A stretch of DNA of 64,000 nt, taken from IMG/VR virus record IMGVR_UViG_3300017749_000005, positions 1-64,000 of that record. One strand, 5' to 3'. The stretch's first letter is position 1. Each line of letters opens with the position of its first letter. The stretch is from a virus. Of the stretch, positions 4,641-47,871 are shown in pieces. The notes under the pieces were generated by a model. The model ran no database searches. It was not told the DNA's origin and saw nothing but the letters and a program-made list of their open reading frames with translations. The translations under genes were made by a program, and so were the position numbers.

Positions 4641-4668
4641 AAGCCGGTCATAACGATCGGCTTTTTTT
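4641..4668. terminator. Intrinsic terminator between convergent modules
   Basis: AAGCCGGTC-ATAAC-GATCGGCTT is a 9-bp stem with one mismatch, followed by T7 on the + strand. It lies between the nrdA stop and the last leftward ORF. The + direction is canonical; the - direction has only a weak U tract. Confidence 0.8.
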
Positions 4669-6024: not shown

Positions 6025-9000
6025 TTACTTGTTTTTCTTGTTATTTATATATTCCTCAATTTCTTTGTCACTTAAATTGAAATCTCTTTTTAATCTTATT
6101 CTTAATCCTTTTTGTTTTTTAGTTAATGGCTTGAACTTATTACCTTTTCTTTCTTCCTCAGTAGCATTTAGCTCCCACTCAGACCATCCCATCATTAAAA
6201 ATGGTCTTTTCCAGTTTTTAGTGTCTGTGTCAAAAGCTTTTTCAATATTATTGTATTTTCTAAAAACTCTATCTAATGGTATGTTAAAAGCACCTGCCAT
6301 AACTTGACCTCCAGCTAAATAAGCTGGATTTTTTAAACTAAAACCTCTTTCTTTTATTTCAGCCATATTATAATCAAATGTTAATCCTGCTGATCTGAGT
6401 TTTGCTATTTTAGAATCTACTGGTGGAGACATATCTAGAAGTCTCAATCCAACATCAGCAAACTCTGTTTTTTTCTTATTATTTTGTTTGTGTATTTCTA
6501 ACATTATGTTTTTTAAAGTAGAAGCACCAGCACCAGCTATACCCATTCCTTTTAATAAACCATCAGCCATTGCATTAGCAAGTCCTAAGTGTTTTTTCTT
6601 AGAAGTAATATCATCTGTTTCTTCAAACAAACCAACAAATAAAGCATTTTGTGCAGCACTAAACATAATATTTTGAATAGCACTATAGTATATTATTTTA
6701 GAAACGTGTTCTTTCCAATCACCTCTACCATTTCTTAAGTCTGATAATGATTTATCCATTATTCTAACATACTGTGCAGGTGTATTTCCAAATGCCAAAA
6801 CTAAACGACCAAGAGTACTAGCCTGCTGTTGAGATATTAAATCAGGTCTACTAGACTGTTGAGATTGTTCCGTAACCTCTCTAAAATCCTCAAAAGCTCT
6901 ATCCTTAGCAGACCTTTCATTTAAACCTTGTTTTAAATATCTATTAAGTCTGTTTCTATAAAAAGTTGCTCCACCTGTAGCAATCGCAAAACTATCAGCA
7001 TACTTTGTAGGTGCAAATCCTTTTTGTAATATATACTTTAACGCACCTTTTATTTTATTTTTAGAAGTAGCAGCGGCATCAGCTATTTCTGATTCACTAA
7101 CATTTATCTTTAAACCACCTCTTCTTTCTACTAAAAAATCAGAATTAAATATGGTAGTAAAATCTTTCCAATATTGCTTTTGATTAGCTATAGCTTTTCC
7201 AGCAGCTAAAACATTATTGTCACTCCAGTTTATATAATTTATACTTGATAAAGTTTGTAATGCTGCCGATCTTGAATTAAGAAACATAATAGCACCAACA
7301 GAATTATTTAACCAATCTATAGCTAGGTTTTCTAACCTTGCACCTTTACCGCTAAACATGTTAATTTTGTTCCTACCAGTTTTCATTCTTTCCAAAGAAT
7401 TTTCTAAAGCCTCTCTGTGATTAGAACCTAATATAGCTTGTATTTTATTTAAATTATCTTCACTAAAAATTATATCAACATTAGCTTGCCATTCTTCTAA
7501 ATGCTTGGCTCTTCCATTTTCGTTTAAGCCTTTTAGTAAATCAGTTGTTATAGTACCAGTTTCCCAATTTTCACCTGGTTCAACATAACCTTCTCCCTTG
7601 CCCATTTCAATAAGCTTATCAGCAAAATATTGAAGCTGTGGATTAGAAGAAACATACTCACTTAACCTTCTTACTTGACCCTCGTTTAAGCCAGTTGTTG
7701 TATTACCCTGCTTGTTCCATATATAAACTCTAACAGCATCTTGATTTGAAAATATATTTTTACTTAAACCCTCTATCTTAGCCTTGCTAGTTAAATCTGG
7801 TATTAAACCTTTTAACTCCTTTTTTAAAGCAGCAAAATCATTAGTCATTGCAACTCTATCTGCATCAATATTTCTATTTGCTATTGCAAAAGGTCTTACT
7901 AAATTTTTTTGTATCCAATTTTCAGCTGCATCACCAACTATACCCTTACCTTTTAATGGTTGTAATAAACCTCTAAAGTCCTGAGCAGACCAAGCCATTA
8001 ACTTTAGCTTATTAGCATCAGCACCCAACTTGCTAGCCTCTATTTTAGAAAAAACTTTTTCTTTTGGTACACCAAATTTGTTTTCTATAGCTGTATTTAA
8101 TTCTTTACTTAAATTTTCAGATGCTAATGTAACTTTTTCAACCCTTCTTTGTCTGTCTATTTTTTCTGCTTCTCTCAATAAAAGTATTTGATTTGTTTTA
8201 CCATTAACAATAGGAACATTTAAATTTTTTGATACTCTTGTAACTTCTTTAGCTCTTTTAGCAAGTTTATCTTGTATCAAACCTAATTCTTTAAGTGACT
8301 CAAATATACCTATTTTTTCTTTTAGTATAATATCATAAGTTTTGCCAGTTTTAAGATCTAAAGTTGTCTCAGCATATGCTTGAGTAATCATTACATTTTC
8401 AGCACTCATTTGAGCTGTATTTTTAAGAGCAGTGCCTAAATTACCACCAAATTCTGGACTATCTATTATTTTCTGTAAAGCAGATCTTATTATACTTATC
8501 TTATAAGAATCTGCTAATTTATTAAAATCATCAGAACGAAGTTCTTTTTCACCTAAACTTTTTAACATTATATCAAAGAAATTAGCATTAAAATTAAGTG
8601 TTTGAAGTTCATGCTCTGTATAAACTCTAGACTTTAAAAAAGCTCTTTGCTTAGCAGTTGGTAAGTCTACAAATTTTTTTCCTTTTAATGAATCTGGATT
8701 CTTAGCTGTTTCAATTTGTTTATTCAACCATTGATTATATTCAACACCCAAAGATTTTATATCAAAAGATTCTATAGAAACACTTGTCATTTCTCCTAAA
8801 GCTCTAATAACACCTGTTTGTATACTAGAGTTTCTTTTAAAAAATTGAGCAATAAACGTTAAAGATTTAACTTTACCTTCTATAGTTTCTTTACTATTTA
8901 CATGCTTAAATAAAGCATTATATATTAATTTTAAAGCTTTTTTATTTGATTCAATTGTTTTTTCAAAATTAGCGTTATTGGCTCTACCACTTATACTTTC

Positions 9001-12000
9001 TCTTATAGCGGCTGCTATTTTAGGATATGCAGATGGTTTTATATTACCGTTTGAATCTAAATTATTATAATCTTTTAATTGAGTTATTAATCTTTCCTTT
9101 ACATTTCTAAAGTCAACTATTTTTAAATTTTCTAAACCTTTAGTAGATTCTTTAATATTTATTTTTTTAATAAAATTATCTGATTCTTTAGCACTTAATA
9201 CTCCTTTCAAAAAAGCATTTCTTAAACCAACTATAACCTTACCATTTTTAAATAATAGTTCTTTAGGTAGCATTAGAATAACTTCATTTACGTTATCTAA
9301 ATATGCCTTTTTTTGTTCAGGTTTACTCAAATCAAGCTCTGATGATACATTTTCTAATAATTCTTTTTTACCTGGATTACGTAATATTGCCTCTTGAATT
9401 ACTACATCATAACCAGATTTTCCTTCTTCAATTTTAGTTATATATTCGTAAGGTTGTTGGTCTATATCACTTAATGCTTTTTTAGCTAACTTTTGTGCTG
9501 CTATAAAAGCTTCCTTTACATTAAAGTTTTTTGAGTCAACAACATTATTTAAGATATCTATTATTTTATCTTTAGATTTATCTGTTGATATTAGATCTTT
9601 TATTTTACCATAAGCTTCTACAATAGCATCTTGCTTACTTTTTAAATAATTTTCATTATCTGGTTTAATTCTAATATTAATATCATTAACTTTACTACTT
9701 AATTCCTCAAAAGCCTCTGTTACTAATTTTTGACTTGCTAAGCTCTCAGGTAAACTACCCTTAAAACCCTCAAGTATATTTTCTAATTTTAAGTTTTCTA
9801 ATTTAGATCTATTAGTGCTATACAGAAACTCTTGATAAGTACTATTGCTTAATACTTCTCTGAACTTTTGATTAGAATATGTTCCACCTATCATTTCACC
9901 CAAAGATATTATTCTTTTAGCGGATTGCTGATTAGTATCTCCTTCTTTAAATATTGCATCTACTAAAATTTTACCAGTAGAATCTAATACCTTTTCTCTA
10001 ATTTTAACACCAGCACCTTTTTGGCTTTTAGTCATACTAGAAGGAGCTGTACTAAACTTTGCTCTACCAACCTCTGCAAACAAGCTTGGAAACGATTTAG
10101 CTGCATTTGTTACTGCTAAGTTCTCTGGGTTAAGACTTTTAGGCACTAACTCATAAATCTTTGATGCATTTTTTTCTATTATCTCTTTTTGTCTCTTTAA
10201 TTCTTTAGCACCTGACTTACCAGTTAAATCTAACGCTTCAAAAATAGCTTTTTTGCCTATATCAGCTGTAGCTTTTTGTATTTCTTTGTGACCAAGAGTC
10301 TCAATAGGTGTTGACTCTATTACTTCCTTTATCCTACTAACCATTTCAACATTAGATTTAGAACTAATTTCAAGTTCTTGTTCTACTGTTTTACCTTTTG
10401 TTGTTTTACCTTCTACGTTAGCGTATGTATCTACTTCTTTAAATTCGTAAGTATCTAAATCTATTTTAGACTCAGTAATTCTAGCTGATATATCTTCACC
10501 TGTTACTTTAGTAAGCTCTAACGCTTTATTGAAGTATTCAGGTGCTCTAATTTCTAATGTTTTTAAAACTGTTTTAGTAAGAGGCTGTTTAGTTGGATCA
10601 TAGTTTTTAACTATAGAACTAATACCTCTTGCTCCATACATCATCTCTATAGCCACTGAATAAGCTTTGCTATTAGGATCTGATATACTACCAAAATTAC
10701 CCATACCATTACGGTTAGCATAAGATGTAATTAAGCTTTGAGTTATTGCAGCAAAATCTCCAAAATCACTTTTTTCATTTGGTTGTTGAAACTCTTTAGT
10801 TATTTCTTCTTTTGATTTACCTTCTGCAACTAGTTTTTCGTATTTATTTTGTATTTCTTTAGAAGCCTCAATATTTTCAGGTGTTGATTGTTCTTTATCT
10901 AATTTTTCAGATTGTAATCTTTGTTGCTTAGGTCCAAACTCAACAGCTTCAACATGCTCAGCAAAACTTGATTTTATATTCAATAAAGGATTATATCCTT
11001 TTAAAGTGTTATTTGTAAAATTATATAAAAAATCAATTACATCTTTCTGCCTACTTAATTCAGGAACAAACTCTTTACCAATAGATTGTTCCATATTCTT
11101 TTGTATGACTTTTTTAACATTAGTATATCCCTCACTGTTAACAATGAAGTCTCGCATACCTGGCTCTGCTAAAAACTCTCCAGCATAAGCCATCATTTCT
11201 TCTAGCTTTACTTCTTTTTTAATGGATTTTCTATCTTTTATTTCTTGTAATACAGTTTTACCACTAGGTAGTTTTATTTGACTTAAAGCACCTTCTAGTT
11301 GAGATTGAAATTGTTTCTTGGCTTTTATATTTTTACCAAAAACCATGTCAGCTGCTGCATGTATTACTTCGTGAGGTACAACACCTGCTCTTTCCGCATA
11401 TACCGTATTTATAGTTATAGTCCCTCCTTTACCCGTACCATCAGACTTAAACTCAGCTTGGTTTTTACTTTCTGTTTTTTTATTTATAACTTCAACATTC
11501 AAGTTATAACCTTGCATTTTAAAAAAATTTGCTTGAGGCTTTAATAATTCTTCATATGCTCTCTTAGAAGTTAATGGATTAGAAAATCTTTCAGCCTTAG
11601 CTATTATATCAATTCTAGATTGTGCTTGTGTATATATATCAGCGTATCTCTTTTCAGCTTTTACATTTCCATTTTTTTGAGCTTTAGCCATTAAAATTAT
11701 AGAAGAATTTCTAATTTCAACAAGTCCCTCATTAGTTTTAAAGTCTAAAGATTTAGCATCTTTAAATGGTAACATAGCACCAAATGTCATACTAATAAAA
11801 CCTCTTTGTAAGAGATCTCTCATATCTTTTTTTCCTTCAAAATAATCGTTGAACTGTTCATCCATGAAATCAGTAAATGATTCATCATAAAGAAGTTCAT
11901 CCACAGCTGCTCTACCTATTTTAGAGGCTTCAGATGCAGTTACAAATCCAATAGAACCGCTAGATATTTTTGTAAAAAAATTAACTATATTGCTAGCTGT

Positions 12001-13758
12001 TTTAGGTGTAAGCTTACCTAAGATTTGTTGGGTTGCACCAAATGTAGATCCTTCAGAAGCCAAACCACCTATAAGCTGAAATTCAACATCTGTTATAGCT
12101 AGATTCAATAACGTATTGCCAAATGCCGCTATAGGATTAGCTCTTACTGCCGTATAACCAGCTGCTGCGGCAAATTCTTTTATAGCTTCCTTTGTTGGTC
12201 TTACTCCTTTTTTTAATTTAGAAGCAACATTAACTATTTTACCAGCCTTGTTAGTATACCTAATAGCAGAAGCAGCTTTATTTAATCTTACTAAAGCTGG
12301 AATTAATGTCATGCCTAAATTTTTGCCCGAACCTAAAAATGCTAACTCTCCTATTGCCATTACCATACCAGGTGTCTCAGTTGCTAATTGTTCTGAAAAA
12401 TCAACTCTAGAATATTCTTTATCCTCTGGAGATAATTCTTTACCAGCTGAAAGTAATAAATTTTCAACAGCATTTATTTCTTTTCTAGGTGTGCTTTCTA
12501 AGCCTCCATAAGGTATTAAATCTATACCAAAGAAAGATAATTTACTAGCACTATCAACCATCTCAGTTAAATCTGACTTTTCAATGTTTCTAAGCGATTT
12601 ATTCTCTATGAATGCATGATTCAAAGCTTTTCTTTCTATTTCTATTTGTTTATTTATATCTTTAAATTTAACTAAAGCTTTCTCAAAATCTTCTGCTGAA
12701 CCATCAAACGTAACAGGTTTTAGTGAATCATCTGATTCATTTAAATATGTACTGTATTTTAATACATCTTTATATTTAACATCTTTATATATGAAATTAC
12801 CATCTTCTTGTTTAGTTCCAGTATAACCCATACCCTGCATAAACATATTTAACTGAGTTCCACCTTCAGATATATAATCACTAGTTTGACGACCCTTTAA
12901 TTTAAAAGCTACTCTATCTTCGACGTTGCTATTATAAAGACTTTCTAAGGTTGACTCATCTTGTTTTACTCTAAGTTCAATAAGTTTTTCAACCTCACTT
13001 GTAACTTTTTGTTCTTCTCCAAAATTACTTATTATTACTTCTTTAAAGTCATCTAAAACTATAATCTCTTGTTCTAGATCGGGTAAACCAACAGCCCCAA
13101 CGCCACCGGATGCCATTGATGTTACTTTATTTAAATCTTTCTTAATTTTATTTTCTTCTGATTTTTTTTTATTTAAAGTGTTAATACTTTGTTCATACTC
13201 TTTTCTATCAGCTTCGGTTTTTGGGCTATTTCTATATTTCGATGCTAAAATGGCTTCAGGACTAGCAGTTTCATCATCTTCAATAGTTTGATCTACTACA
13301 TCATAGTATGATTCGTTATCTTTTATAGCCTCAAAAAGGTTTTCGTCTCTTATTAATTTATACTCATCCTCACTTTTCTTAGCTATCCTACTAGATATCA
13401 TTTCAGTTACATCAGATTTTTTGAGAGATTTAAAATCATTCTCTACATCTCTCATATACCAAGGATTGATACCTATGGATCTTCTGATTTTATCTGAAAC
13501 TTCTTCTAGTTTATCTTCATCTTTAAATATATCAGCAAAACTATCCGTATCAGCATAAGACCTCATTAAATTTTCATCACTAAAAACTTCATCATCTAAA
13601 AAACTGTTGAACTTAACAATATCCTGCTTATATTCAGTTGAAGATTTTCTAATATCTTCATCAGACATAGCAGGTTTGTTGCTAGATTTATCCTCATCAA
13701 AAGAAGTACCAATTATATTATCTATAATACCTAAGGGATTAAACTTACTTTCTGGCAT
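6025..13758 (-). CDS. Giant 2577-aa virion-associated protein with zincin HExxH motif (candidate ejected / polyvalent internal protein)
   Basis: One uninterrupted 7.7-kb ORF. HEVIH lies at aa 796-800 (nt 11359-11373). The protein is K/E-rich and helical, with no fibre-like repeats. It is the last and largest of three consecutive internal-protein-like genes, a T7 gp14/15/16-like position. Confidence 0.6.
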   Translation of the reverse strand: MPESKFNPLGIIDNIIGTSFDEDKSSNKPAMSDEDIRKSSTEYKQDIVKFNSFLDDEVFSDENLMRSYADTDSFADIFKDEDKLEEVSDKIRRSIGINPWYMRDVENDFKSLKKSDVTEMISSRIAKKSEDEYKLIRDENLFEAIKDNESYYDVVDQTIEDDETASPEAILASKYRNSPKTEADRKEYEQSINTLNKKKSEENKIKKDLNKVTSMASGGVGAVGLPDLEQEIIVLDDFKEVIISNFGEEQKVTSEVEKLIELRVKQDESTLESLYNSNVEDRVAFKLKGRQTSDYISEGGTQLNMFMQGMGYTGTKQEDGNFIYKDVKYKDVLKYSTYLNESDDSLKPVTFDGSAEDFEKALVKFKDINKQIEIERKALNHAFIENKSLRNIEKSDLTEMVDSASKLSFFGIDLIPYGGLESTPRKEINAVENLLLSAGKELSPEDKEYSRVDFSEQLATETPGMVMAIGELAFLGSGKNLGMTLIPALVRLNKAASAIRYTNKAGKIVNVASKLKKGVRPTKEAIKEFAAAAGYTAVRANPIAAFGNTLLNLAITDVEFQLIGGLASEGSTFGATQQILGKLTPKTASNIVNFFTKISSGSIGFVTASEASKIGRAAVDELLYDESFTDFMDEQFNDYFEGKKDMRDLLQRGFISMTFGAMLPFKDAKSLDFKTNEGLVEIRNSSIILMAKAQKNGNVKAEKRYADIYTQAQSRIDIIAKAERFSNPLTSKRAYEELLKPQANFFKMQGYNLNVEVINKKTESKNQAEFKSDGTGKGGTITINTVYAERAGVVPHEVIHAAADMVFGKNIKAKKQFQSQLEGALSQIKLPSGKTVLQEIKDRKSIKKEVKLEEMMAYAGEFLAEPGMRDFIVNSEGYTNVKKVIQKNMEQSIGKEFVPELSRQKDVIDFLYNFTNNTLKGYNPLLNIKSSFAEHVEAVEFGPKQQRLQSEKLDKEQSTPENIEASKEIQNKYEKLVAEGKSKEEITKEFQQPNEKSDFGDFAAITQSLITSYANRNGMGNFGSISDPNSKAYSVAIEMMYGARGISSIVKNYDPTKQPLTKTVLKTLEIRAPEYFNKALELTKVTGEDISARITESKIDLDTYEFKEVDTYANVEGKTTKGKTVEQELEISSKSNVEMVSRIKEVIESTPIETLGHKEIQKATADIGKKAIFEALDLTGKSGAKELKRQKEIIEKNASKIYELVPKSLNPENLAVTNAAKSFPSLFAEVGRAKFSTAPSSMTKSQKGAGVKIREKVLDSTGKILVDAIFKEGDTNQQSAKRIISLGEMIGGTYSNQKFREVLSNSTYQEFLYSTNRSKLENLKLENILEGFKGSLPESLASQKLVTEAFEELSSKVNDINIRIKPDNENYLKSKQDAIVEAYGKIKDLISTDKSKDKIIDILNNVVDSKNFNVKEAFIAAQKLAKKALSDIDQQPYEYITKIEEGKSGYDVVIQEAILRNPGKKELLENVSSELDLSKPEQKKAYLDNVNEVILMLPKELLFKNGKVIVGLRNAFLKGVLSAKESDNFIKKINIKESTKGLENLKIVDFRNVKERLITQLKDYNNLDSNGNIKPSAYPKIAAAIRESISGRANNANFEKTIESNKKALKLIYNALFKHVNSKETIEGKVKSLTFIAQFFKRNSSIQTGVIRALGEMTSVSIESFDIKSLGVEYNQWLNKQIETAKNPDSLKGKKFVDLPTAKQRAFLKSRVYTEHELQTLNFNANFFDIMLKSLGEKELRSDDFNKLADSYKISIIRSALQKIIDSPEFGGNLGTALKNTAQMSAENVMITQAYAETTLDLKTGKTYDIILKEKIGIFESLKELGLIQDKLAKRAKEVTRVSKNLNVPIVNGKTNQILLLREAEKIDRQRRVEKVTLASENLSKELNTAIENKFGVPKEKVFSKIEASKLGADANKLKLMAWSAQDFRGLLQPLKGKGIVGDAAENWIQKNLVRPFAIANRNIDADRVAMTNDFAALKKELKGLIPDLTSKAKIEGLSKNIFSNQDAVRVYIWNKQGNTTTGLNEGQVRRLSEYVSSNPQLQYFADKLIEMGKGEGYVEPGENWETGTITTDLLKGLNENGRAKHLEEWQANVDIIFSEDNLNKIQAILGSNHREALENSLERMKTGRNKINMFSGKGARLENLAIDWLNNSVGAIMFLNSRSAALQTLSSINYINWSDNNVLAAGKAIANQKQYWKDFTTIFNSDFLVERRGGLKINVSESEIADAAATSKNKIKGALKYILQKGFAPTKYADSFAIATGGATFYRNRLNRYLKQGLNERSAKDRAFEDFREVTEQSQQSSRPDLISQQQASTLGRLVLAFGNTPAQYVRIMDKSLSDLRNGRGDWKEHVSKIIYYSAIQNIMFSAAQNALFVGLFEETDDITSKKKHLGLANAMADGLLKGMGIAGAGASTLKNIMLEIHKQNNKKKTEFADVGLRLLDMSPPVDSKIAKLRSAGLTFDYNMAEIKERGFSLKNPAYLAGGQVMAGAFNIPLDRVFRKYNNIEKAFDTDTKNWKRPFLMMGWSEWELNATEEERKGNKFKPLTKKQKGLRIRLKRDFNLSDKEIEEYINNKKNK

Positions 13759-13766
13759 ATTTTTTT

Positions 13767-15326
13767 TTATTGAAATATTGATGGTGTATTTAAAAAAGAA
13801 CCTTCAAAGTGAGATACAAGTTGATTTGCAAGGCTACTTAAACTATTTGTTAATAAAGGATCAGAAGCATCAGTATATTCAACATTGCCCTCTGAATCTG
13901 TAGGAAATCTTCCATTAACAGAGCTTATTATCCAATATTTACTGGGTTTACCAGGAACCTCTTGTTCAACTATTTTCTTTTTACTAGTTCTAAATTCTTC
14001 TAGGTCAAGACTATTTATAATTTTTTGAACATAAGCTGGATTATTGTTTTTATTTTTTCCAAATGTTACATCAGACTTTAAATCAAAGGATTGATCAAAT
14101 TTACTTATAGCTGAGGTAATAGCAGTATTTACTTTTTCAGTGGCAAAATTAATTCTTTTATCTTTAGCACTAAGTTCAGTACCTGATCCAGGATCGTCTG
14201 GATTATTAGCTTTTGCTTCAGCATCTAAAAACTTTTGAGACTTAGCATTATGAATTTGTGTAGCTTGACTAATATTTAGCTTTAATCCATTCACTTGCTC
14301 TTGAGCAACAATATCCTTAAAATATTCATAAGCTTCTTCTTGATTTTTTTTATAGCTTTCACTAGGGTTATCAACAACCTTAAGATTGTCTTTATGCATT
14401 TTAAGCTCAAGTAATTGATATTCAGAGCCTTCGTTTGTAAATCTATTTTCTAATGATCTATAGTATCCATTATCGTTTCCATTTATACCTAGATCATCAA
14501 ACATAAAAGATAAAGCTTCGTTATTATCTAATGATTTTTTAAATCTTTCTTTTTGCTCACTATAAAAATCTTCACCAAATTTTCCCGGAGGTATTATCAT
14601 GTTTTCATAATCCACACCTACATTTAATCTTATTTTTTCAATTTGCTCTTTAAAATACTTAGCCTCAGCTTTTGCTGGTTTTTGATATGAAAAATCTTGG
14701 TCAATTCCACCATCTTCGTTTATTTTAAGTTTTTTGTTACCTAGAATATTATTTTTAATTGTTTCAAATAGATCTGGATTAGTAACATAATTAGCTTTAC
14801 TATAGTTTTTTAAGCCTTCTTCAGTAAATTCACTCGCATCTACTCTCATTTTATTGATATCTGCAACAACTCTTTGTATTTTATTTAGTGATAGTTGCTT
14901 TCTGTAATTTAATTCATTTTTTTCTTCTTGAGATATAGTGCCACTTTCAAGTTTACCAATAATATCAGAGTATTCATTTCTAACACTAGATACATAATCA
15001 TGTAATACAGCTTTTTGATCAGGATTTAATCCTTCTGGGTCAATTTTAGCATATGATTTATTAAAATCTTTCATGTATTTCTCTATGTTAGCATCATGTA
15101 GTTTTTGTAAATCTTGCTCGGATTTAGCAGCAGCATCTTTAACTGCTTTTTTAGCCGCTTTTTCTTCTTGACCCATTTTATACAATGCATTAAATGGTTT
15201 TTCAAAATCATCCATTGCATCATACATTCGTTGATCACCTTGTACTTTTGACTGAGCTATATCTCTTGCCCCTGTTATCAAAGCTTGATTAGTACCACCA
15301 CCACTTAATTGTCTTCTTCTAGCCAT
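13767..15326 (-). CDS. 519-aa coiled-coil-rich virion internal protein candidate
   Basis: K/E/D/N-rich helical sequence between the A/Q/G-rich membrane-like protein and the 2577-aa giant. The call is positional only. Confidence 0.4.
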   Translation of the reverse strand: MARRRQLSGGGTNQALITGARDIAQSKVQGDQRMYDAMDDFEKPFNALYKMGQEEKAAKKAVKDAAAKSEQDLQKLHDANIEKYMKDFNKSYAKIDPEGLNPDQKAVLHDYVSSVRNEYSDIIGKLESGTISQEEKNELNYRKQLSLNKIQRVVADINKMRVDASEFTEEGLKNYSKANYVTNPDLFETIKNNILGNKKLKINEDGGIDQDFSYQKPAKAEAKYFKEQIEKIRLNVGVDYENMIIPPGKFGEDFYSEQKERFKKSLDNNEALSFMFDDLGINGNDNGYYRSLENRFTNEGSEYQLLELKMHKDNLKVVDNPSESYKKNQEEAYEYFKDIVAQEQVNGLKLNISQATQIHNAKSQKFLDAEAKANNPDDPGSGTELSAKDKRINFATEKVNTAITSAISKFDQSFDLKSDVTFGKNKNNNPAYVQKIINSLDLEEFRTSKKKIVEQEVPGKPSKYWIISSVNGRFPTDSEGNVEYTDASDPLLTNSLSSLANQLVSHFEGSFLNTPSIFQ

Positions 15327-15343
15327 TTTATTTTTTTTAATAT

Positions 15344-16168
15344 TTATTTGTCTTTCAAAAAATCTAGATTTACATAATATGGGTTGTTTTTAGGATCTGA
15401 TCTAAATGGATCAATAAGCCCTGCCTGTAAATTACCATTATAATTTTGGAAGCCTACACCAACGCTTGGTGCTGTAATAGGCGCTGATGTTAAACCTGAC
15501 ATATCTGGCATAGCTTGGTTAATAGCACCATTAAACTTAGTAAAATCTTCAGCAAAATCTCCTCCTGCTTTTTTAGCTGCAGCAACTCCACCAATAACAC
15601 CTACACCGGATTGAATTCCACTCATTAATTCAGCTTCAGCATTTGCTTTTTGTGCATTAGCACCAGCTAATTGTTGCTGTGCCATACCTAACATTGTACT
15701 TGTTTTTCCATACTCTAAAGATCTAGCTTGCCCCGCTCCTTGAGCCTTCATAGCTTGTACCTTAGAAGCCATCTGAGCCGACGCCATTGAATTCTGTCTC
15801 TCTTGTTGACCTATAGATATAGATGCTTTCTGAGATGCTACATTAGCTCTACCTTGCGATGCTTGAGCTAAAGCTGCTATACCAGAACTACCAGCAGAAG
15901 CTTTAAGCGTTGATAAAGTATCAGCTTGATTAGCTCTTATTGCATTTTGTTGAAACTTAGCTTGCTCTTGATTAATAGTTAAATCCTCCATAGAATTTTC
16001 CATACCCTCATACAAATTAGAGGTGTCTAGAGATTCATAAGCCCTCATCATTTTTTGCTCTTTTTCTTCAGCTTCTTGTCGAGCATCTTTAGCTTTCTTA
16101 TTTTTTATTCCCGCTATCGTTATTTGTGTGGCAGCACCAACACCTGCTGCAATTGCTACAAAGGACAT
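15344..16168 (-). CDS. 274-aa Ala/Gln/Gly-rich protein with hydrophobic termini (internal virion / membrane-inserting candidate)
   Basis: The N-terminus FVAIAAGVGAATQITIAGI and the later GIQSGVGVIGGVAAA are hydrophobic Gly/Ala segments. The middle is low-complexity AQ-rich. Confidence 0.4.
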   Translation of the reverse strand: MSFVAIAAGVGAATQITIAGIKNKKAKDARQEAEEKEQKMMRAYESLDTSNLYEGMENSMEDLTINQEQAKFQQNAIRANQADTLSTLKASAGSSGIAALAQASQGRANVASQKASISIGQQERQNSMASAQMASKVQAMKAQGAGQARSLEYGKTSTMLGMAQQQLAGANAQKANAEAELMSGIQSGVGVIGGVAAAKKAGGDFAEDFTKFNGAINQAMPDMSGLTSAPITAPSVGVGFQNYNGNLQAGLIDPFRSDPKNNPYYVNLDFLKDK

Positions 16169-17044: not shown

Positions 17045-20000
17045 TTAAGGTTCTACTTGTAGAGTTATTTGAGGATTTAATCTTAAAACAGTGGTTGATG
17101 ATACTGTTGAACTAAGATTGAATACAGCATTAAAAGTTAATGTTCTTGATTGGTTTCCAGCATTACCAGAAAATGATGATGTAAATATAAAGTTATTTAT
17201 AGTTGTAGTAAAACCCAATGTTGATGGTCCTAATGCTAATCCTATCATATTAATAGTATTACCATGAAAAGTACCAGTAACAGAACCACTACCTGAGATT
17301 TGACCTGATGAACCTACCGCAACTTTTTTAGGCGTAAAAGTAAAAAAATCAATATAAAAGCTAGATGAAAATGTTTTTTGTATAAATATATCTGTTACAG
17401 TAGCATTATTATTATTTTGAGTACTACCTATTGTTGCTGTTAATATACTATTTAAGTTAATTGGTATTTGTAAATCATTAATTCCATATTTAGATACAGA
17501 TATTCTACCTTGTAATATATATTTATTTCCAGCACTTGTAGATGAAAGAGATTCAGTTAAATCTTCAAAGTTAAAATCCCAAAATGGATCATTTGCTGAT
17601 AAACTAGCATTTATAATGATACTAGAACCTACTATACTGCTTTGAAAATCATTAGGATTTGAACCATTCAAACCAACTGCATTTACCACAAAAGAATTAC
17701 TACTTATAGAACTTATAACATAAGTATCATCAAAAGAGCTCGAAGAAACTAGCATACCTATTGCAACATTAGAATCTAAAGTAGCTGTTAAAGTAAATGT
17801 TCTTGAAGAAGTGTTATAAGAACTTACTGATGCTTCAAATTCTTCAGGCTTTAAATCACTATTTGTTATTGGCAATGCATTGGTAGTTTTTGCTAATAAA
17901 GCTGTTCCTTCAGCTTTTGCTATAACTCTGAAAAATACTTCAGAAGCAAATGAACCTGGTACTGGTTCTCCATATGCATGATATTGTCCATTGTCTCCAA
18001 AAGTCAGTTCAGCTGCATCAGCTATAGCTACATTTGCAAAACTAGAGTTTTTAGGAACTTTATCTATATTTATTGTTGTTTTAGATCCATCACTACTAGT
18101 AGATACTACTCTAGTATATGCTTGTATATTGTTACCAAAAACAAGCATACCTGGTTTTATCTCTGAGTTAACAGCACTAAGTACTATACTATCAAGTCCA
18201 GAAGCATGACCATTAGAGTCAACAACAGTTGCATCATTTAAGTTTCTAAGCTTAACATAGTTATTAGAATCTGTTCCAGTAGCTGTAGTAGAATTAGTGT
18301 TAGTAGCCACAATACTTATTGTAGGTAATTTGTATTGATGTACAAGAAAAGATGCATGTACAACATTATTATTACTATCTCTTGTGTTTATTGCGCTTCC
18401 AGAAAAATCACTACTAAGTAATCCACTTACAATATTATTGTTAATAACATTGATTGGTCTTATAAAATAATTAAAACTATTAGTTGTAGAACTTTGGTCA
18501 TATTTTATAGTTATAGGATATCTACCTGAATCAGGAAGAAGTAAAATTGTTTCTGCCGCTATTGATTTAGTAGAGACAAACTCTGTACCATTCCAGTATT
18601 GTTTAAGGTAAATGTTTTGACCTATGCTTGGACTAATATTTCCGCTTGAGCCTAGTATTATAAATGCTGTTATTATGCCTGTAATACTATTTACACTGGT
18701 ATAGTTAATATAACTTCCAGGTGGAAACATTGCACCAGTTATTTCCATTTTAGGTCTTGGTGTTGCTGTTAAATTACCAAAAGTAGCATGAACAATACTT
18801 GTAGTTGTTTGAGAAAACGTGGCTAATGTACAAGTTACTTCATTACTAAAAGTAAAATAAGGATTAACTTTAGAAACATAGCCAGTAGATCCACTAACAA
18901 TCATTGTTCTATCTTCTCCTTTATTTAATATTGTTTTATTTGTTCCATCGAAAGAAGTAAGTTCTGAAACACCAGGATCAAAAACCTCAGCAGCAGTAGC
19001 TGTTAGCGTTATAACATCTTGTGTTGGATTATTAGTTCCAAAAACATATTTTACCTGTACTGTAACTTTAGCAGAAGTAAAAGTTAAAGTTGTTCCAGCT
19101 TCTATTGATTTAGCGGCACTTAAGGTTAAGCTTGAGTTATTTATAGCAGCAACTCTAATATTTTTACCTAAATTAACACCTGTAACAGCCATACCTACTT
19201 CTATGAGGTTGTTTGTTCCACTCAAAGTTACATTTACACTGTTAGAAGAACCTAGAGCAGTATCTTGAGTTGTGGTTGCCCAATTGTTAGTTATAGTATA
19301 ACCACTTATGTCATTATCATCTTGTTGTTCTATAATACCGCTAATACTACTAGCTGATGGGAAAAAATAATTATCCGAAGCTATAAATATTTTTGCAAAA
19401 ACTAACATTGGAGCGGTATTGTATATACCGTGATTGTTTTGAAATCTTCCTAAATCCCTAGAATCTGTTGTAGTATTTGTTTCATGTGTGTTATAAAAAC
19501 CAGAAACAGAATAGTATATAGGCGTTGCAACTCCTGTTAAATCATTAACATATGATTGATCAGAGCTAGGGTGATTTATGGAAAAGCTAAAAGTTGCAAT
19601 AACATTTTTTCCATCTTGCAAAAAAGTAACAGCGTTAGATCCTCTTAACACACTAGCACCCATTTGATAAGCAAATATTTTGTAACCTAAAACAGGTTCA
19701 ATTGTTAATTGAACATTAGCAATAGCGCTACCAGGTTCTCCATATATTACTTTAGTATCACTAACAATTGTATTATGGTTAGAAGATGCATTAGTCATTG
19801 ATACTGTAATTTTCTTTTGAGTTATAACAGTATCACCAGTCATTAGAGTAAAAGTACCTAATCCTTGCACAGACAATTCCTTAGTATCTATATTTGAAGA
19901 TGAGGTAACATCTCCCGTAATAAAATTACTCCATAAACCTTCTTTTTCTTTAAATGATAAAACATTACCAGATTGTATATTTGTTTTAACAGAGGATCCA

Positions 20001-23000
20001 GTCCAACCTTTAATATAAGATGTTGTAAGTTCTGCTATTTGGTTTGAATTATAACCCGATTTTTTGAGTTTATCTAGAGTAGTTCCCGCTGCTATAGTAA
20101 TATTACTTGATAATGATTGACCTGACGAGTTTTTTGTTATTACTCCAGAATATGTATAATATCTTGAGCTACTTCCTTCGTAAGATATAGTTTTATATTC
20201 TTTAACTATAGATGGTTGATCATTAATTAATAATGTTACTGAGGAATTATCTGTTGTTATTATTTCTAAATTAGCTGAATTACCTATAGTTATGCTGGAT
20301 GATAATGTTATTTGAGTATTTAAAGCTTTATTAGGTACTAACTGTTCTTCTCCAGCTCTACCCATTATTATTGTTTTACCATTCTTAGGTGCGCCAGTAC
20401 TTTCTTGAAGTGAAGGATTAATATTAGAGTTATTAAAACTTAAAGTGTAAGAAGGTGGATTATTTGGTACATCATCACTTAAGTTAGTATTGTTATAGCT
20501 ATAGCTAGCTTTATTTATTACAACACCATCTATATAAACTTCAACTTCTTTCTGTATTGAAGGTCTAACGTTAAAACCAGAAGATTCTAAAACATTAAAA
20601 CTAACTATAGATCCATTACCAGTGAATTTAACTGACTCATTAAATACAGGTATTATAGGTACTGTTATAGCTGAAACAGTTACATCTCCATTTACAGCTT
20701 CGTCTATTATATAATCTCCAACCTTTATATTAGCAACACTAGGTTGTGTGCCTAAGTAAAGAGTTGTACCACTAGAAACACTAGTTCCCTCTACACACAA
20801 ATGTTGATAAAAAGAGTTTCTTCTAGTATTATTATGACAATACAAACGCCCGTACTTAAATGTAAAATAATTATTATTTAGAGAAAAACCAGCTTCAGGT
20901 AAGAAAGACTTAAAAGAAGTCCAACCATCAACTCTTTCGTCAAAACTTAAAGTATAATCACTTAGTGTTATATTGTATAGTCCTTTCTTTTCATTGTATG
21001 TACCTATTATTGAATTAGACAACAGTAGATTGTCATTAAACCAATCAGTCATACCTTTGGATGATACCTCTGTTATACCATCTCTAGAAAGCCTTAAAAC
21101 AGCTCCTCTAGCTTTGTCAGAAAAATAAATCCTATAAGCGTGAGATACAAAAGATTCAGGGTTTTTAGATATTCCAAACTCACCTAAATAAGGTATTGCT
21201 TGGCCTAATACTCTATTTGTTGAAAGTAAATTAGGATTTCCATCAGCATTAAATAAAGCATCTTTATTTGCTAATATTTTTAAAACTTTATCTTCACAAA
21301 AAGCTATTAAATCAGTATCTCTTACGTGTAGTTTTTGTATACTACCATACTCTGGATTTAAATCCTTAGTTATTTTCTCAGCCATTAAAAACTGATTTAA
21401 CCTATTAACGCCACCAGTAGAATTAAATATGCCTGAATATATAATACTACTTGGTTTTATTTCTTCTTTGTATTTTTCATTTAATACTGTTGACACTATA
21501 GGCCCTTTGTCTATAGTCATAGCATTAAAATCATCTCTTAACCTATTAGACTCTACTCCTTGCCCAAAACTATAACAATTAAACCAATCTAGAGTATGTT
21601 CTTGGCCATGTACTTGATTTTCAGCTATAATAATAGAAGCTGCGTTTGCATTGTAAGCAGTTTCACCTATTTTTATATTGAAAGAATATGAATCATCTGC
21701 TGCTGTAAATACTAGAGTTTGGCCAGCTAATAAACTACCATTATTTAATGGGGATAATATTATTTTATTTTTGCTTGAAGAATAAAAGCTAACAATTGTA
21801 TTATTTGCTATACCAGTTTGACCCGCTAAAGTAGTTACTTTTAAACCAGTTTTTAATATAGGTATTGCACTCGTAGCTTCATTATATATGTCTATGTCAA
21901 TAGACTCTAGTGGCTCAGTTTCAAATATTGCTGGATTATCAGAAGATATATCAGTCTCATCTAAACTTTCAGTTGAAACTAATTTTCTTAGTATATTTAT
22001 TTGAGTTATTCTTCCCTTAAGTTCATTAGCTCCAGTAATATTATATCTAAAGTCGTCATCGTAGGTTTTTGTAATACCATCTACTTTTTCAAATTCAATA
22101 GTATAGTTTCTTCTTTTACCAGCTGTTCTTTTTTTTCTTGAATTATTTTTATGTCTATAGTTATGCTCTACTGTAGCACTTTTAACTCTATAAGGACTTC
22201 CAACTTCTCCTGCCTCATTTTGAAATTGTATTATAGTACTTTTATTTTGAGTTAGTTCTTTTTCAAAAGCGTTAACAGTAAAATCTGGTTGATGACTAGT
22301 GTCTTTGTCTCCAGGAAGATCAACTCCAGCTAAATATATAGTAAAACTATTTCCTCCTAATTCTGGATGTCTCGGTGTATTACTTACATCACCCGCACCT
22401 TTTGGATCTGTCCAACAAAATTCTGACTTACTACTTTTTTTGTCACCTTGGGGATCACTTGAAGCAGCTTCTACTATTTGTTGATCTCTAACTATTACAT
22501 ATTCAGTTACTACTGAAGGAAATGTTTCTACAATTGAAGTATCAAATAAGTTGTCTCTATTTATTTTAGCAAAAAATCTTCCAAAAAATTCCGACTTATT
22601 TTTTTTGGTCTTACCAAATATATTTATACTATATTCTTCACCACCATTGCCATTACTGTTTAAAAAAACAGATGTTGTACCTTCTTCAGAACTAGTGGCT
22701 AACAGCGTTTCGCTTTCTGATTCATCAAAAGAGTTTTTTAGCTCTACTTGATATATCTCTAAACCATTAGCATCAGTTTTTCCTGTTCCTCCACCTTTTT
22801 TAATATCATACTTTTTCGTTATACCATTAGATGTTGTTATTGCTATAGAATTTTCAGAATTAAAACTTCTATAAAAAGTAGGATTTTCTACATCGGTAGG
22901 ACCTAAAAATTGAAAACTTATAGACTTAACCCTTGGTTCATTGTTTAATCCATTATTATAAATACTTTTAACAGTAGCCACGGATAAAGATTTTAACTCT

Positions 23001-24961
23001 TCAGATATATAACTAGGTACTTCGTTTGATATATCTAATATTTTATATTTACCCGGTTCGCTTACAAATGTATCTTTGTCGTGTTGCTTTTTAAGGTAGA
23101 TGTAAGAATCTACTGTTATTTTATTTCTTTCCGAAGAAGGAAACGAAAGCCAAACATTGCCGTCTTCAGCTAAATAAAACCTGTCTAAAGCTAGATTATA
23201 ATATTCGCTAGAACTTTCTTTTATAAAATACTTAAAGTGAGTAGCAAAAGCAGGAGCTAAGTTACTTAATCTACATTTTAATGAATTTTTTTTATCTGCA
23301 TCACTTTTTTGTACCTTAACAGCTGCATCTTTATTTGTAAATACTGGTGTTTCTCTACCATATTTATCTAAATAAACAACACCTGTTTGATATGTTCTTT
23401 GTGATTTTAATGATTTTTCTGGATACCCAATTGTTGATATTTTATTAGATATTATTTTAGTGAAAATATCAGGAAGTCTAGTATTATCTATGTTATAACC
23501 TTGTTTGTAATTACCATATAATACTCTATTTGAACTTATTTCTTGAGATTTAGCTGTTAATGGAATAGCATCCCAAGGTCTAAGTATTTGATTAGACTCT
23601 ATTATATCACCTACTATTTCGTTAGTTATATTATATGGAAACTTAGATTCAACGTCTTCTGCTTTTATTCTATCAACTACAAATATGTTATCATTATTAG
23701 ATTCTTTGTATAAAAGCTCTACCTCAACAACACCATTAGCTATTTTTTCTATACTATCTAATGTTAATATTCTTGTTGTATTTATCATTCCAACGTTAAA
23801 TCCATCAGAAGATTTATACTTAAATTCAGATGGAAGAAAAGCAATTTCAGAAAATGGAGATAGTGTTGAATACTCTCCGTCTATATATTTCCATCTATGT
23901 GAGAATCTTACAAATTTATTCTCAAATAAAGGCTCGTCTTCCTTAAGAGAAATATCCCATTTTTTAGTACCAAAAGGAACTTCATCTGGTATTGATTGTA
24001 TACTAGCTTTTAATGTTTTAAAATTATTTTCTTCATCAACTATGGACACTGTTATTTCGTAGTATTTATCACCATTTATGGGATCTTCAACTTCATGAGT
24101 CAACTTTAGTCTATCTTTAAGACGATAATCACCTTGAATATTTAAATTTATAGTAATTATATCACCTGGTTTTAGATTAACTGTATCACTATTTCCAGTA
24201 GAGGTAAAAGAAGCGATATTACTTGATAAAGGTCTTGTTGTTGTACCTAGTCCAGTTCTTTTTGAAGAGCTAAAAGATATTTTTGGTGCATAGTTTGGTG
24301 AAAGCTTAATAGCTGTAATATCTGATTCTATAAAATCAGAAAAATTATTTAAGCTAAAGCCTTCTTCTGCTGTATTTAACACTGGATACTTAGTATGTGT
24401 TTCAAATTGAGCAGCTCCATTAACAGTACAACCTGCTTTAAAAGTTTTTATATTTATTTTTTTAGGTTCTGTTTTGTTGTCAGTCCACAATAACAGTCCA
24501 TTTATGATATTAATGCCTGTTATTAAGTTGTCTTTACTAAAATTAAGTATGTTTTTTACATCAACAAGTACTGGCTGAATTTCATCTGTTATATCGTTAT
24601 ATTCAAGTATTGCGCTTGCGGTATTAATACTACTACTATCTATGTTTGTGTATGAGTAAGTTATAAACCAATAAACTTTATCATTTTGAGTGTCTACTAT
24701 ATGCCCAACACAAAAGGGATTATGCAAATCAAAATAATTTGAGTCTGCGGTCCATTTGTCAAGTACTTTTGTAATTGGATTGTAATACTTTCCAGTCTTT
24801 AAACTAGTACCTATTACGTTTTGCACGGTTCCAACGTTGGATCCATCAGATGTAGCTATCTCTATATTTTGAGCATCTCTATACTCTCCATTAGGCAACA
24901 GCCTCTCATCAAGATCTTTATTCATACGACCTTTACGAAAGTGATGTTTTAATTCCGGCAT
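17045..24961 (-). CDS. Giant 2638-aa tail-associated structural protein (nozzle / tubular-B-like N-terminal part fused to a long beta-rich extension)
   Basis: One uninterrupted 7.9-kb ORF downstream of capsid and adaptor-size genes. The N-terminus GRMNKDLDERLLPNGEYRDAQNIE, LLWTDN, and the later DGWTSFKSFLPE..YFTFKYGRLYCHNN resemble podovirus tail-hub proteins as I recall them. The C-terminal ~1400 aa is S/T/N/G-rich, beta-like sequence. Confidence 0.55.
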   Translation of the reverse strand: MPELKHHFRKGRMNKDLDERLLPNGEYRDAQNIEIATSDGSNVGTVQNVIGTSLKTGKYYNPITKVLDKWTADSNYFDLHNPFCVGHIVDTQNDKVYWFITYSYTNIDSSSINTASAILEYNDITDEIQPVLVDVKNILNFSKDNLITGINIINGLLLWTDNKTEPKKINIKTFKAGCTVNGAAQFETHTKYPVLNTAEEGFSLNNFSDFIESDITAIKLSPNYAPKISFSSSKRTGLGTTTRPLSSNIASFTSTGNSDTVNLKPGDIITINLNIQGDYRLKDRLKLTHEVEDPINGDKYYEITVSIVDEENNFKTLKASIQSIPDEVPFGTKKWDISLKEDEPLFENKFVRFSHRWKYIDGEYSTLSPFSEIAFLPSEFKYKSSDGFNVGMINTTRILTLDSIEKIANGVVEVELLYKESNNDNIFVVDRIKAEDVESKFPYNITNEIVGDIIESNQILRPWDAIPLTAKSQEISSNRVLYGNYKQGYNIDNTRLPDIFTKIISNKISTIGYPEKSLKSQRTYQTGVVYLDKYGRETPVFTNKDAAVKVQKSDADKKNSLKCRLSNLAPAFATHFKYFIKESSSEYYNLALDRFYLAEDGNVWLSFPSSERNKITVDSYIYLKKQHDKDTFVSEPGKYKILDISNEVPSYISEELKSLSVATVKSIYNNGLNNEPRVKSISFQFLGPTDVENPTFYRSFNSENSIAITTSNGITKKYDIKKGGGTGKTDANGLEIYQVELKNSFDESESETLLATSSEEGTTSVFLNSNGNGGEEYSINIFGKTKKNKSEFFGRFFAKINRDNLFDTSIVETFPSVVTEYVIVRDQQIVEAASSDPQGDKKSSKSEFCWTDPKGAGDVSNTPRHPELGGNSFTIYLAGVDLPGDKDTSHQPDFTVNAFEKELTQNKSTIIQFQNEAGEVGSPYRVKSATVEHNYRHKNNSRKKRTAGKRRNYTIEFEKVDGITKTYDDDFRYNITGANELKGRITQINILRKLVSTESLDETDISSDNPAIFETEPLESIDIDIYNEATSAIPILKTGLKVTTLAGQTGIANNTIVSFYSSSKNKIILSPLNNGSLLAGQTLVFTAADDSYSFNIKIGETAYNANAASIIIAENQVHGQEHTLDWFNCYSFGQGVESNRLRDDFNAMTIDKGPIVSTVLNEKYKEEIKPSSIIYSGIFNSTGGVNRLNQFLMAEKITKDLNPEYGSIQKLHVRDTDLIAFCEDKVLKILANKDALFNADGNPNLLSTNRVLGQAIPYLGEFGISKNPESFVSHAYRIYFSDKARGAVLRLSRDGITEVSSKGMTDWFNDNLLLSNSIIGTYNEKKGLYNITLSDYTLSFDERVDGWTSFKSFLPEAGFSLNNNYFTFKYGRLYCHNNTRRNSFYQHLCVEGTSVSSGTTLYLGTQPSVANIKVGDYIIDEAVNGDVTVSAITVPIIPVFNESVKFTGNGSIVSFNVLESSGFNVRPSIQKEVEVYIDGVVINKASYSYNNTNLSDDVPNNPPSYTLSFNNSNINPSLQESTGAPKNGKTIIMGRAGEEQLVPNKALNTQITLSSSITIGNSANLEIITTDNSSVTLLINDQPSIVKEYKTISYEGSSSRYYTYSGVITKNSSGQSLSSNITIAAGTTLDKLKKSGYNSNQIAELTTSYIKGWTGSSVKTNIQSGNVLSFKEKEGLWSNFITGDVTSSSNIDTKELSVQGLGTFTLMTGDTVITQKKITVSMTNASSNHNTIVSDTKVIYGEPGSAIANVQLTIEPVLGYKIFAYQMGASVLRGSNAVTFLQDGKNVIATFSFSINHPSSDQSYVNDLTGVATPIYYSVSGFYNTHETNTTTDSRDLGRFQNNHGIYNTAPMLVFAKIFIASDNYFFPSASSISGIIEQQDDNDISGYTITNNWATTTQDTALGSSNSVNVTLSGTNNLIEVGMAVTGVNLGKNIRVAAINNSSLTLSAAKSIEAGTTLTFTSAKVTVQVKYVFGTNNPTQDVITLTATAAEVFDPGVSELTSFDGTNKTILNKGEDRTMIVSGSTGYVSKVNPYFTFSNEVTCTLATFSQTTTSIVHATFGNLTATPRPKMEITGAMFPPGSYINYTSVNSITGIITAFIILGSSGNISPSIGQNIYLKQYWNGTEFVSTKSIAAETILLLPDSGRYPITIKYDQSSTTNSFNYFIRPINVINNNIVSGLLSSDFSGSAINTRDSNNNVVHASFLVHQYKLPTISIVATNTNSTTATGTDSNNYVKLRNLNDATVVDSNGHASGLDSIVLSAVNSEIKPGMLVFGNNIQAYTRVVSTSSDGSKTTINIDKVPKNSSFANVAIADAAELTFGDNGQYHAYGEPVPGSFASEVFFRVIAKAEGTALLAKTTNALPITNSDLKPEEFEASVSSYNTSSRTFTLTATLDSNVAIGMLVSSSSFDDTYVISSISSNSFVVNAVGLNGSNPNDFQSSIVGSSIIINASLSANDPFWDFNFEDLTESLSSTSAGNKYILQGRISVSKYGINDLQIPINLNSILTATIGSTQNNNNATVTDIFIQKTFSSSFYIDFFTFTPKKVAVGSSGQISGSGSVTGTFHGNTINMIGLALGPSTLGFTTTINNFIFTSSFSGNAGNQSRTLTFNAVFNLSSTVSSTTVLRLNPQITLQVEP

Positions 24962-47617: not shown

Positions 47618-47871
47618 TCAACTAAAACAACGTCCGATATTTTTATTACTTTATATAACTTGTCTTTATAGTCAATACCGTGACCCGCATGCTTATCGTA
47701 GAATACGATATCGGATTTTTCAATACCTTCTACCTTATCTCCACAACTTATTATTCTAGCTTTAATGTATCTATTATCTACATCTGTTTTTTCAGTAAAT
47801 ATAAGTCCAGCAATTTTTTTTTGCTTTTCTTTTATATCATCTACTATAAGGTAATAATTAATCGCTTTCAT
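47614..47871 (-). CDS. groES: Co-chaperonin GroES (Cpn10) homologue
   Basis: 85 aa. YYLIVDDIKEKQKKIAGLIF..ARIISCGDKV..SDIVFYDKHAG..YKVIKISDVVLV follows the Cpn10 pattern (mobile-loop region, then the VGD-type hairpin). It overlaps the groEL stop by 14 nt. Confidence 0.75.
   Translation of the reverse strand: MKAINYYLIVDDIKEKQKKIAGLIFTEKTDVDNRYIKARIISCGDKVEGIEKSDIVFYDKHAGHGIDYKDKLYKVIKISDVVLVE

Follow-up and report, generated by a model that had tools for sequence, protein, structure and literature searches.

A predicted virion cargo cluster with a giant polyvalent-type protein carrying a gluzincin-like domain in a marine podovirus

The DNA analysed here is a stretch of 64,000 nucleotides (nt; the window) covering positions 1 to 64,000 of the IMG/VR virus record IMGVR_UViG_3300017749_000005. 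Three consecutive genes of its minus strand, encoding proteins of 274, 519 and 2577 amino acids (aa), probably encode the virion cargo or ejection proteins of a marine podovirus of Bacteroidota that is related to the Pervagoviridae, and the last product (~290 kDa, hereafter the giant) would be a polyvalent-type protein with a gluzincin-like domain. The open reading frame coordinates (Table 1) are in agreement with the three-gene arrangement described in an earlier note made from the sequence alone, and the frames are separated by 17 nt (274/519) and 8 nt (519/2577). None of the three proteins gave an above-threshold match in Pfam, PHROGs or NCBIfam, and tblastn of each against 50,697 phage records returned no match. 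In Pfam, no family reached the giant at an expectation value (E) of 0.1 or below, including the large polyvalent-protein-associated domain (LPD), MuF, ADP-ribosyltransferase (ART-PolyVal) and MPTase-PolyVal families, and no SLT or lysozyme family was found for any trio protein in the three databases. The earlier note had recognised no lytic transglycosylase, RNA polymerase or ART motif by eye, and the profile searches likewise found none in the giant.

The giant contains a single HExxH, the HEVIH motif (context AERAGVVPHEVIHAAADMVFG), which lies where the earlier note had placed it and supplies two predicted zinc ligands, H796 and H800, and a predicted catalytic base, E797. Because the protein has just 12 histidines, only 0.005 such motifs are expected from its composition. 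Conservation of the motif in relatives, which the same note had named as a test of a peptidase role, was observed: exactly one HExxH is present in 113 of 126 independent full-length representatives and two in none (0.003 expected), and the median of its relative position is 0.31. In an unbiased full-family alignment (43 sequences), H796 is conserved in 86%, E797 in 93% and H800 in 95%, and only seven positions of the first 1660 aa reach 70% (G411, G482, G506, H796, E797, H800 and E854). The last of these, 58 residues downstream of the motif, is a candidate third zinc ligand, conserved in 77% of the same alignment and in at least 90% of a trimmed one (A4). The giant has no HExxHxxGxxH and is thus not a metzincin.

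Two parts of the giant, aa 660-1120 and aa 1850-2577, were modelled with AlphaFold2. In the first, a helix is followed by three strands, the helix bearing the HExxH (134-148 of the model), one more helix and then another, which begins at E853/E854, 53-58 residues past the motif. This topology is that described for the zincin peptidases of polyvalent proteins, of which zincins are the commonest domain (PMC5512222). When the region was compared with solved structures by Foldseek, the three top ranks were occupied by zincins at non-significant values (MATCAP, E 0.26; anthrax lethal factor, 0.98), and SPRTN (2.8) and PepO also appeared. Zincins were also the only recurring theme among the sub-threshold Pfam hits of family members (SprT-like, DUF3267, ATLF, Peptidase_Mx and DUF6782), one relative matching ATLF at E 7.9e-4, below the Pfam cut-off; a profile of the region retrieved nothing relevant from the PDB sequences. 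The metallopeptidase proposed earlier is thus borne out for the conserved HExxH, the downstream glutamate and the predicted zincin-like topology, but its fold is suggested rather than demonstrated, Foldseek and profile matches being non-significant. Conservation supports a gluzincin-like module well and the predicted fold makes one plausible; it is assignable to no curated zincin family.

The best conserved part of the giant lies elsewhere. Its family comprises 47 homologues of 1767-3938 aa with different inserts, and is defined by a C-terminal all-alpha module of ~680 aa which is 38-53% identical across the family (38-47% for the 47 homologues, which have mainly this part in common), the remainder of the protein being less than 20% identical. 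An exhaustive search with this module recovered at least 2,336 representatives of 50%-identity clusters at E ≤ 1e-3; in 150 of the 150 matches listed it sits at or near the C-terminus, in proteins of 749-3305 aa, mostly longer than 1900 aa. The AlphaFold2 model contains ~36 helices, with a predicted local distance difference test score (pLDDT) of 72 and a predicted template-modelling score (pTM) of 0.67. Foldseek against solved structures gave generic helical proteins only (best E 0.46, TM < 0.15), and a whole-family profile run against the PDB sequences gave only coiled-coil and designed-protein noise. In BFVD, 49 matches were obtained at E ≤ 1e-3, of which four belong to the same family and most of the others correspond to a downstream part (second or third piece) of a giant protein from an uncultured tailed phage, at 10-17% identity; the best reach TMq 0.5-0.64. 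Several are annotated as PolyVal ADP-ribosyltransferase, LPD, MuF C-terminal domain, nuclease or type I restriction enzyme, so that the predicted structures point to a fold-level kinship of the module with polyvalent proteins. These structural matches, together with the variable effector modules of the relatives described below, support the link to 'polyvalent' injected proteins drawn in the earlier note. Its remark that most of the 290 kDa is unassigned overlooked both this module and the swapped cassette, to which we now turn.

Compared with its nearest relatives, P0002 and P0003, the giant is mostly 90-100% identical over aa 1-1300 (in aa ~900-1200, 58-78% with P0003), and for aa 1900-2577 the value is 83-100%. 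The segment of ~500 aa in between retains 41-56% identity at its edges and 16-28% across aa ~1400-1800. It is a replaced cassette, as would be expected of arms-race effectors. A conserved 'EH' motif (TEHELQ in the query, ~aa 1715) is the single shared landmark inside the cassette. Between the zincin and the C-terminal module, other relatives carry a Zeta toxin/AAA_33, an N6_N4 DNA methylase or a HAD-like module; DUF5763 is also carried by relatives. The HAD-like module (DFDDT...LTAR...FADD) is found in about half of the representatives, immediately upstream of the C-terminal module, and a segment of P0007 resembles a PD-(D/E)XK nuclease by eye only. None of the Zeta-toxin/AAA_33, methylase or HAD-like motifs is present in the query. 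A HAD-like domain was considered there and rejected: the interval aligns to the module of the relatives with every motif residue missing. Upstream of the zincin motif, a Gly/Ala-rich and mildly hydrophobic region that includes the three conserved glycines may be membrane- or partner-interacting. Sigma-70 regions 2 to 4, seen by eye at aa ~1060-1100 (NYDPTKQPLTKTVLKTLEIRAPEYF) and in part of P0047, were dropped as unsupported, as no sigma family was found in Pfam for the query, P0047, P0007 or P0036, Foldseek returned no sigma factor and the model has a pLDDT below 65 there.

The first protein of the trio is rich in Ala (17%), Gly (9.5%) and Gln (9.5%). The earlier note had described its two ends as hydrophobic. 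This holds for the N-terminus, where a transmembrane-like segment (FVAIAAGVGAATQITIAGI) reaches a 19-residue Kyte-Doolittle mean of 1.78, but not for the C-terminus, which is polar. The hydrophobic N-terminus is common across an alignment of the family, which comprises 396 metagenomic homologues, with Tara ocean samples as a frequent source, and has a sharply conserved core, LDTSN.Y..MEN.MEDLT.N ... AAG.SGIAALAQ ... SIGQQE..N; it is also found in the 239-aa protein of a syntenic genome (L008; 1.84 at aa 1). When the family profile was aligned by hhalign to gp099 of Cellulophaga phage phi40:1, a probability of 89.4% and an E of 2.1e-6 were obtained over 161 columns (aa 8-168 of the 200 of gp099). 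By this profile comparison the family is a remote homologue of gp099, a virion protein verified by tandem mass spectrometry (MS/MS) and encoded in the same syntenic slot. No match was found between the profile and the 302-aa protein of MW202828, N4 gp52 (E 0.87) or T7 gp14 (E 0.5, probability ≤1%). The 274-aa protein is most likely a small cargo or ejection protein, as predicted from these relationships.

The 519-aa protein is charged, being rich in Lys, Asn, Glu, Ser and Asp, and lacks hydrophobic segments. Its homologues number only 5, with 43-93% identity, and its profile showed no similarity to phi40:1 gp100, the 698-aa protein of L004, N4 gp51 (E 0.65) or T7 gp15 (E 0.057, probability ≤1%). 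The slot of its gene is filled by a gene for 497-698 aa in every relative examined.

The position of the trio is that of virion genes. The minus-strand block to which it belongs is a podovirus structural operon encoding the large terminase, the portal, a capsid-like protein and several PHROG 'virion structural proteins', and the trio constitutes its last three genes, the giant being its last large gene. Upstream, with two small genes between, lies the gene for a 2638-aa nozzle/muzzle-like tail protein. This protein is Ser/Thr/Asn-rich and homologous to the MS/MS-verified gp097 of phi40:1, and over residues 1125-1385 it shares 44% identity (E 9e-61) with a 513-aa metagenomic protein in which the Pfam domain crAss_MUZ_C is found. 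Its homologues in relatives measure 946-1721 aa, about half its length, and in some relatives the region is divided between two genes. The genes for the 2577-aa and 2638-aa proteins jointly occupy 15,651 nt, or 24.5% of the window, as had been estimated earlier (15.6 kb, about 24%). Downstream of the trio come three small minus-strand genes (105, 155 and 82 aa) and then convergent plus-strand ribonucleotide reductase genes. No terminator-like site directly follows the giant gene, the minus-strand unit continuing with the three small genes; a strong hairpin with a T-run is present at 4641-4663 (plus strand), just past the plus-strand ribonucleotide reductase gene and facing the structural operon.

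The portal and capsid proteins group this phage, whose genome is ~68 kb, with the uncultured podovirus MW202828, Maribacter phage Panino, the Flavobacterium 'elemo' phages and the Cellulophaga phages (Pervagoviridae). By portal and capsid it is of the lineage of phi40:1 (Pervagoviridae, Callevirus), with 26-46% identity for the capsid protein. The window and five other genomes have one gene order in common: terminase, portal, capsid, nozzle/muzzle-like giant, small genes, proteins of ~200-430 aa and ~500-700 aa, then a giant and convergent replication or nucleotide-metabolism genes. From the nozzle/muzzle-like giant onwards this order is shared by the cultured and uncultured relatives just named and by three metagenomic genomes in which relatives of the giant are encoded. 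A giant-type gene holds the same terminal operon position in four other phage genomes. In phi40:1, the syntenic gp097, gp098, gp099 (200 aa), gp100 (549 aa) and gp101 (1691 aa) are all annotated as structural from MS/MS proteomics. Syntenic giants are encoded by MW202828 (3859 aa, L003 741-12320), phi40:1 (gp101, L006 26571-31646) and Panino (L002 35444-40933). The terminal giant slot is conserved while its occupant turns over. The ejectosome-like placement proposed in the earlier note is supported, the trio sitting where podovirus ejection or cargo proteins sit.

Table 1. Features of the predicted cargo cluster and its operon, with coordinates in the window unless a family member is named
Feature	Coordinates	Strand	Basis or remark
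274-aa gene, first of the trio	16168..15344	minus	ATG start
Hydrophobic transmembrane-like segment of the 274-aa protein, aa 3-21	16106..16162	minus	Kyte-Doolittle 19-residue mean
519-aa gene, second of the trio	15326..13767	minus	ATG start
2577-aa giant gene, third of the trio	13758..6025	minus	ATG start
Gly/Ala-rich, mildly hydrophobic region of the giant, aa ~400-700 (G411, G482, G506)	11659..12561	minus	composition; Kyte-Doolittle peak aa 472-490
Predicted zincin-like (gluzincin-type) module, aa ~732-864	11167..11565	minus	AlphaFold2 model
HEVIH motif, aa 796-800	11359..11373	minus	two predicted zinc ligands and catalytic base
E853-E854 (E854 candidate third zinc ligand)	11197..11202	minus	conservation; start of model helix 193-205
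Swappable cassette, aa ~1350-1880	8119..9711	minus	identity drop against P0002 and P0003
C-terminal all-alpha module, aa ~1865-2545	6124..8166	minus	identity and AlphaFold2
HAD-like modules in family members P0004-P0046 (examples)	P0013 aa 2191-2338; P0017 aa 1530-1648		
2638-aa nozzle/muzzle-like tail protein	17045..24961	minus	phrog_14478 'virion structural protein', E 2.6e-125
Capsid-like protein	27791-29233	minus	structural operon
Portal	30548-32974	minus	structural operon
Large terminase	32979-35189	minus	structural operon

Phage-type polyvalent proteins were described by Iyer, Burroughs, Anand, de Souza and Aravind in 2017 (PMC5512222). The 2811-aa gp47 of the Stx phage phi24B is one of them; it has a metallopeptidase domain, was found in virions by proteomics and was proposed to be ejected. 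Like these proteins, the giant is huge and multi-module, is encoded among podovirus virion genes, carries a zincin-type HExxH and has modules shuffled between orthologues. Unlike polyvalent proteins, it has no Pfam LPD, MuF, ART or MPTase-PolyVal match and a single recognisable catalytic motif, and its constant part is a C-terminal all-alpha module without counterpart among solved structures, and not an N-terminal MuF or portal-type head-targeting domain. In the crassvirus PhicrAss001, the muzzle gene (gp44) is followed by those of the cargo proteins C1 (gp45), C2 (gp46) and gp47/49/50 (Bayfield et al. 2023, PMC10172136). The trio follows a muzzle-like gene and therefore occupies the same place. 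Both clusters begin with a protein having an N-terminal transmembrane helix and rise in size from smaller proteins to one of ~260-290 kDa that is predicted helical; the crassvirus genome is, however, ~100 kb against ~68 kb here, and the giant bears no RNA polymerase signature.

The same three-gene order and size progression at one end of the virion gene block is found in phage N4, with gp52 (150 aa), gp51 (644 aa) and gp50, a 3500-aa virion RNA polymerase (vRNAP) with a zincin module; in gp50 as in the giant, the HExxH module is preceded by a beta-strand. Unlike in N4, there is no polymerase in the giant, and no homology was detected for any of the three proteins. The likeness to T7 gp14, gp15 and gp16 noted earlier stands for three consecutive late genes of increasing size, the first encoding a protein with a hydrophobic segment, but not for homology: hhalign gave no profile similarity to gp14 or gp15 at the values reported above, and PHROGs and Pfam gave nothing. 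The resemblance is thus one of order, size and character only; moreover, the trio has no lytic transglycosylase domain, and its last protein is modular and twice as long as that of T7. The N4 gp52-gp51-gp50 genes and the crassvirus muzzle-cargo cluster are closer analogues than T7. Finally, gp099-gp101 of phi40:1 belong to the same lineage by portal and capsid, occupy the same slots and are all MS/MS-verified there; however, no homology to the 519-aa and 2577-aa proteins can be detected for gp100 and gp101, and gp101 is shorter than the giant.

The sequence of events that we favour is the following. The trio would be made late together with the other structural proteins, as its operon position suggests, and the three proteins would be packed inside the capsid, in line with the synteny with MS-verified virion proteins and the remote homology of the 274-aa protein. 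They would then be expelled through the tail ahead of the DNA or with it. By analogy with T7 gp14 and crAss001 gp45, the N-terminal hydrophobic helix of the 274-aa protein would enter the host envelope and, with the 519-aa protein, help form a conduit. The giant would be a phage-type polyvalent protein whose constant C-terminal module serves as a 'carrier' docking in the virion or conduit and whose exchangeable middle cassette carries lineage-specific effectors. After delivery, the gluzincin-like domain (H796, E797, H800 and E854) would most likely cut the polyprotein itself, or a host target. We put forward more tentatively the wider proposal that the C-terminal module is an undescribed but widespread 'carrier', which docks giant cargo in podovirus capsids and threads it through the tail, the resident zincin freeing swappable effectors in the host. 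If true, this would be a general modular protein-injection platform of marine Bacteroidota phages, with kinase, phosphatase, methylase and nuclease effectors.

Several observations weigh against the cargo and polyvalent-protein assignment. The virion mass spectrometry evidence comes from the syntenic phi40:1 proteins and not from the giant's own family, which has no cultured representative among the phage records searched by tblastn. The syntenic giants of MW202828, Panino and phi40:1 show no detectable homology to the 2577-aa protein by family hidden Markov models (HMMs) at the full-sequence level, and those of phi40:1 and Panino are without any HExxH; that of MW202828 has two HExxH regions with weak domain matches to the zincin-region HMM (independent E-values 0.013 and 4.9e-4). 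The cargo or ejection role predicted for the 519-aa protein is assigned from position alone. In the giant itself, no second enzymatic module could be recognised with Pfam, PHROGs or NCBIfam. The model of aa 660-1120 has a mean pLDDT of 56, with 70-86 in the catalytic helices and 50-64 in the strands. Foldseek of the zincin region against solved structures yielded nothing significant (all E > 0.2), no Pfam zincin passed its cut-off (best for the query SprT-like, E 0.024, 14.9 bits against a cut-off of 25.6), and hhalign against the N4 vRNAP peptidase region gave a probability of 3.9%, aligning the strand and the motif only. Lastly, QExxH or HDxxH replaces the motif in a few relatives and it is missing in 13 of the 126 representatives, so that catalysis is not universal in the family.

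The same variants, with the lack of a significant curated zincin model, are what would be expected if the HExxH held a metal for structure and not for catalysis, or were a relic, and the giant were no more than a scaffold or conduit component. We regard this as unlikely: among the first 1660 aa only H800 is better conserved than the glutamate E797, a degree of conservation unexpected for a purely structural site, and the complete motif is kept in 90% of the independent representatives. A more serious contender, still doubtful in our judgement, keeps the location (packaged and ejected) and gives the zincin another task than self-processing, namely cleavage of peptidoglycan cross-links or envelope proteins so that the conduit can pass, or destruction of a cytoplasmic defence or host protein. 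In the phi24B study the gp47 metallopeptidase was proposed to degrade the envelope, effector proteolysis of host proteins is one option considered by Iyer et al. (PMC5512222), and the trio, in which neither a lytic transglycosylase nor a lysozyme can be recognised, would otherwise lack a means of breaching the envelope. However, HExxH gluzincins are not the usual peptidoglycan peptidases of phages, and a domain about one third into the chain, beside exchangeable modules, is the arrangement described for the autoprocessing peptidases of polyvalent proteins (PMC5512222).

The location itself would differ if the giant were not injected cargo but a structural protein on the outside of the particle or associated with the tail (a fibre, a tape-measure-like ruler or a plug, for instance). 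Its gene does lie in the structural operon directly after the tail genes, and the syntenic gp101 of phi40:1 is known only as 'structural'. This explanation is nevertheless improbable, since both modelled regions of the giant are predicted to be almost wholly alpha-helical and the protein is K/E-rich without beta-helix or fibre repeats, its relatives carry enzymes with cytoplasmic substrates (Zeta-toxin-type kinase, DNA methylase, HAD-like phosphatase), its structural matches are polyvalent proteins and not fibres, and the genome has separate tail-fibre genes. The least probable alternative makes the giant an RNA polymerase packaged in the virion, of the type of N4 gp50 or of the crAss-like two-barrel enzymes, to which it corresponds in size and in its position after two smaller virion proteins (N4 gp52-gp51-gp50, crAss001 gp45-gp46-gp47). 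A two-barrel or N4 vRNAP-like signature, listed in the earlier note as something to look for, was not found: neither D.D.D nor DxDGD occurs anywhere in the 2577 aa, the best BLASTP value against N4 gp50 was 0.99, no such family was matched in Pfam, PHROGs or NCBIfam, and no polymerase is among the structural matches. With no similarity to the N4 vRNAP and no D.D.D, the giant is thus very unlikely to be a virion RNA polymerase.

Elsewhere in the window, a GroEL-type chaperonin is encoded at 47858-49420 on the minus strand (phrog_5725, E 1.5e-131); MW202828 and Panino also encode GroEL and a GroES-like co-chaperonin. Three large tail-fibre-like proteins (37583-40021, 40021-42081 and 51057-53696, minus strand) have a similar C-terminal domain of ~100 aa, matching the same PHROGs (phrog_5668, 33119 and 28992 among them) in all three and phrog_8215 in the first two only, which suggests paralogous receptor-binding proteins. 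ARAGORN reported a single 89-nt tRNA-Asp with anticodon ATC at 60914-61002 on the plus strand; as its length and A34 anticodon are both unusual for tRNA-Asp, the call may be spurious or the tRNA atypical.

The first minutes of an infection are decided by the proteins that a phage ejects, and giant polyvalent proteins are believed to bring in anti-defence and takeover enzymes. This kind of system is already known (PMC5512222); what is new is a large uncultured family, absent from Pfam, PHROGs and all cultured phage genomes searched, with a distinctive C-terminal module and a cassette hot-spot. The family is apparently marine and tied to Bacteroidota phages, and it is now linked to proteomically verified virion proteins. 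A domain map of the giant is also available, comprising the Gly-rich region, the zincin module, the exchangeable cassette and the constant C-terminal module. In it, mutagenesis and structural work find concrete targets in the conserved HExxH/E854 site and the C-terminal module, and the cassette swapped between near-identical phages marks where new effectors could be sought.

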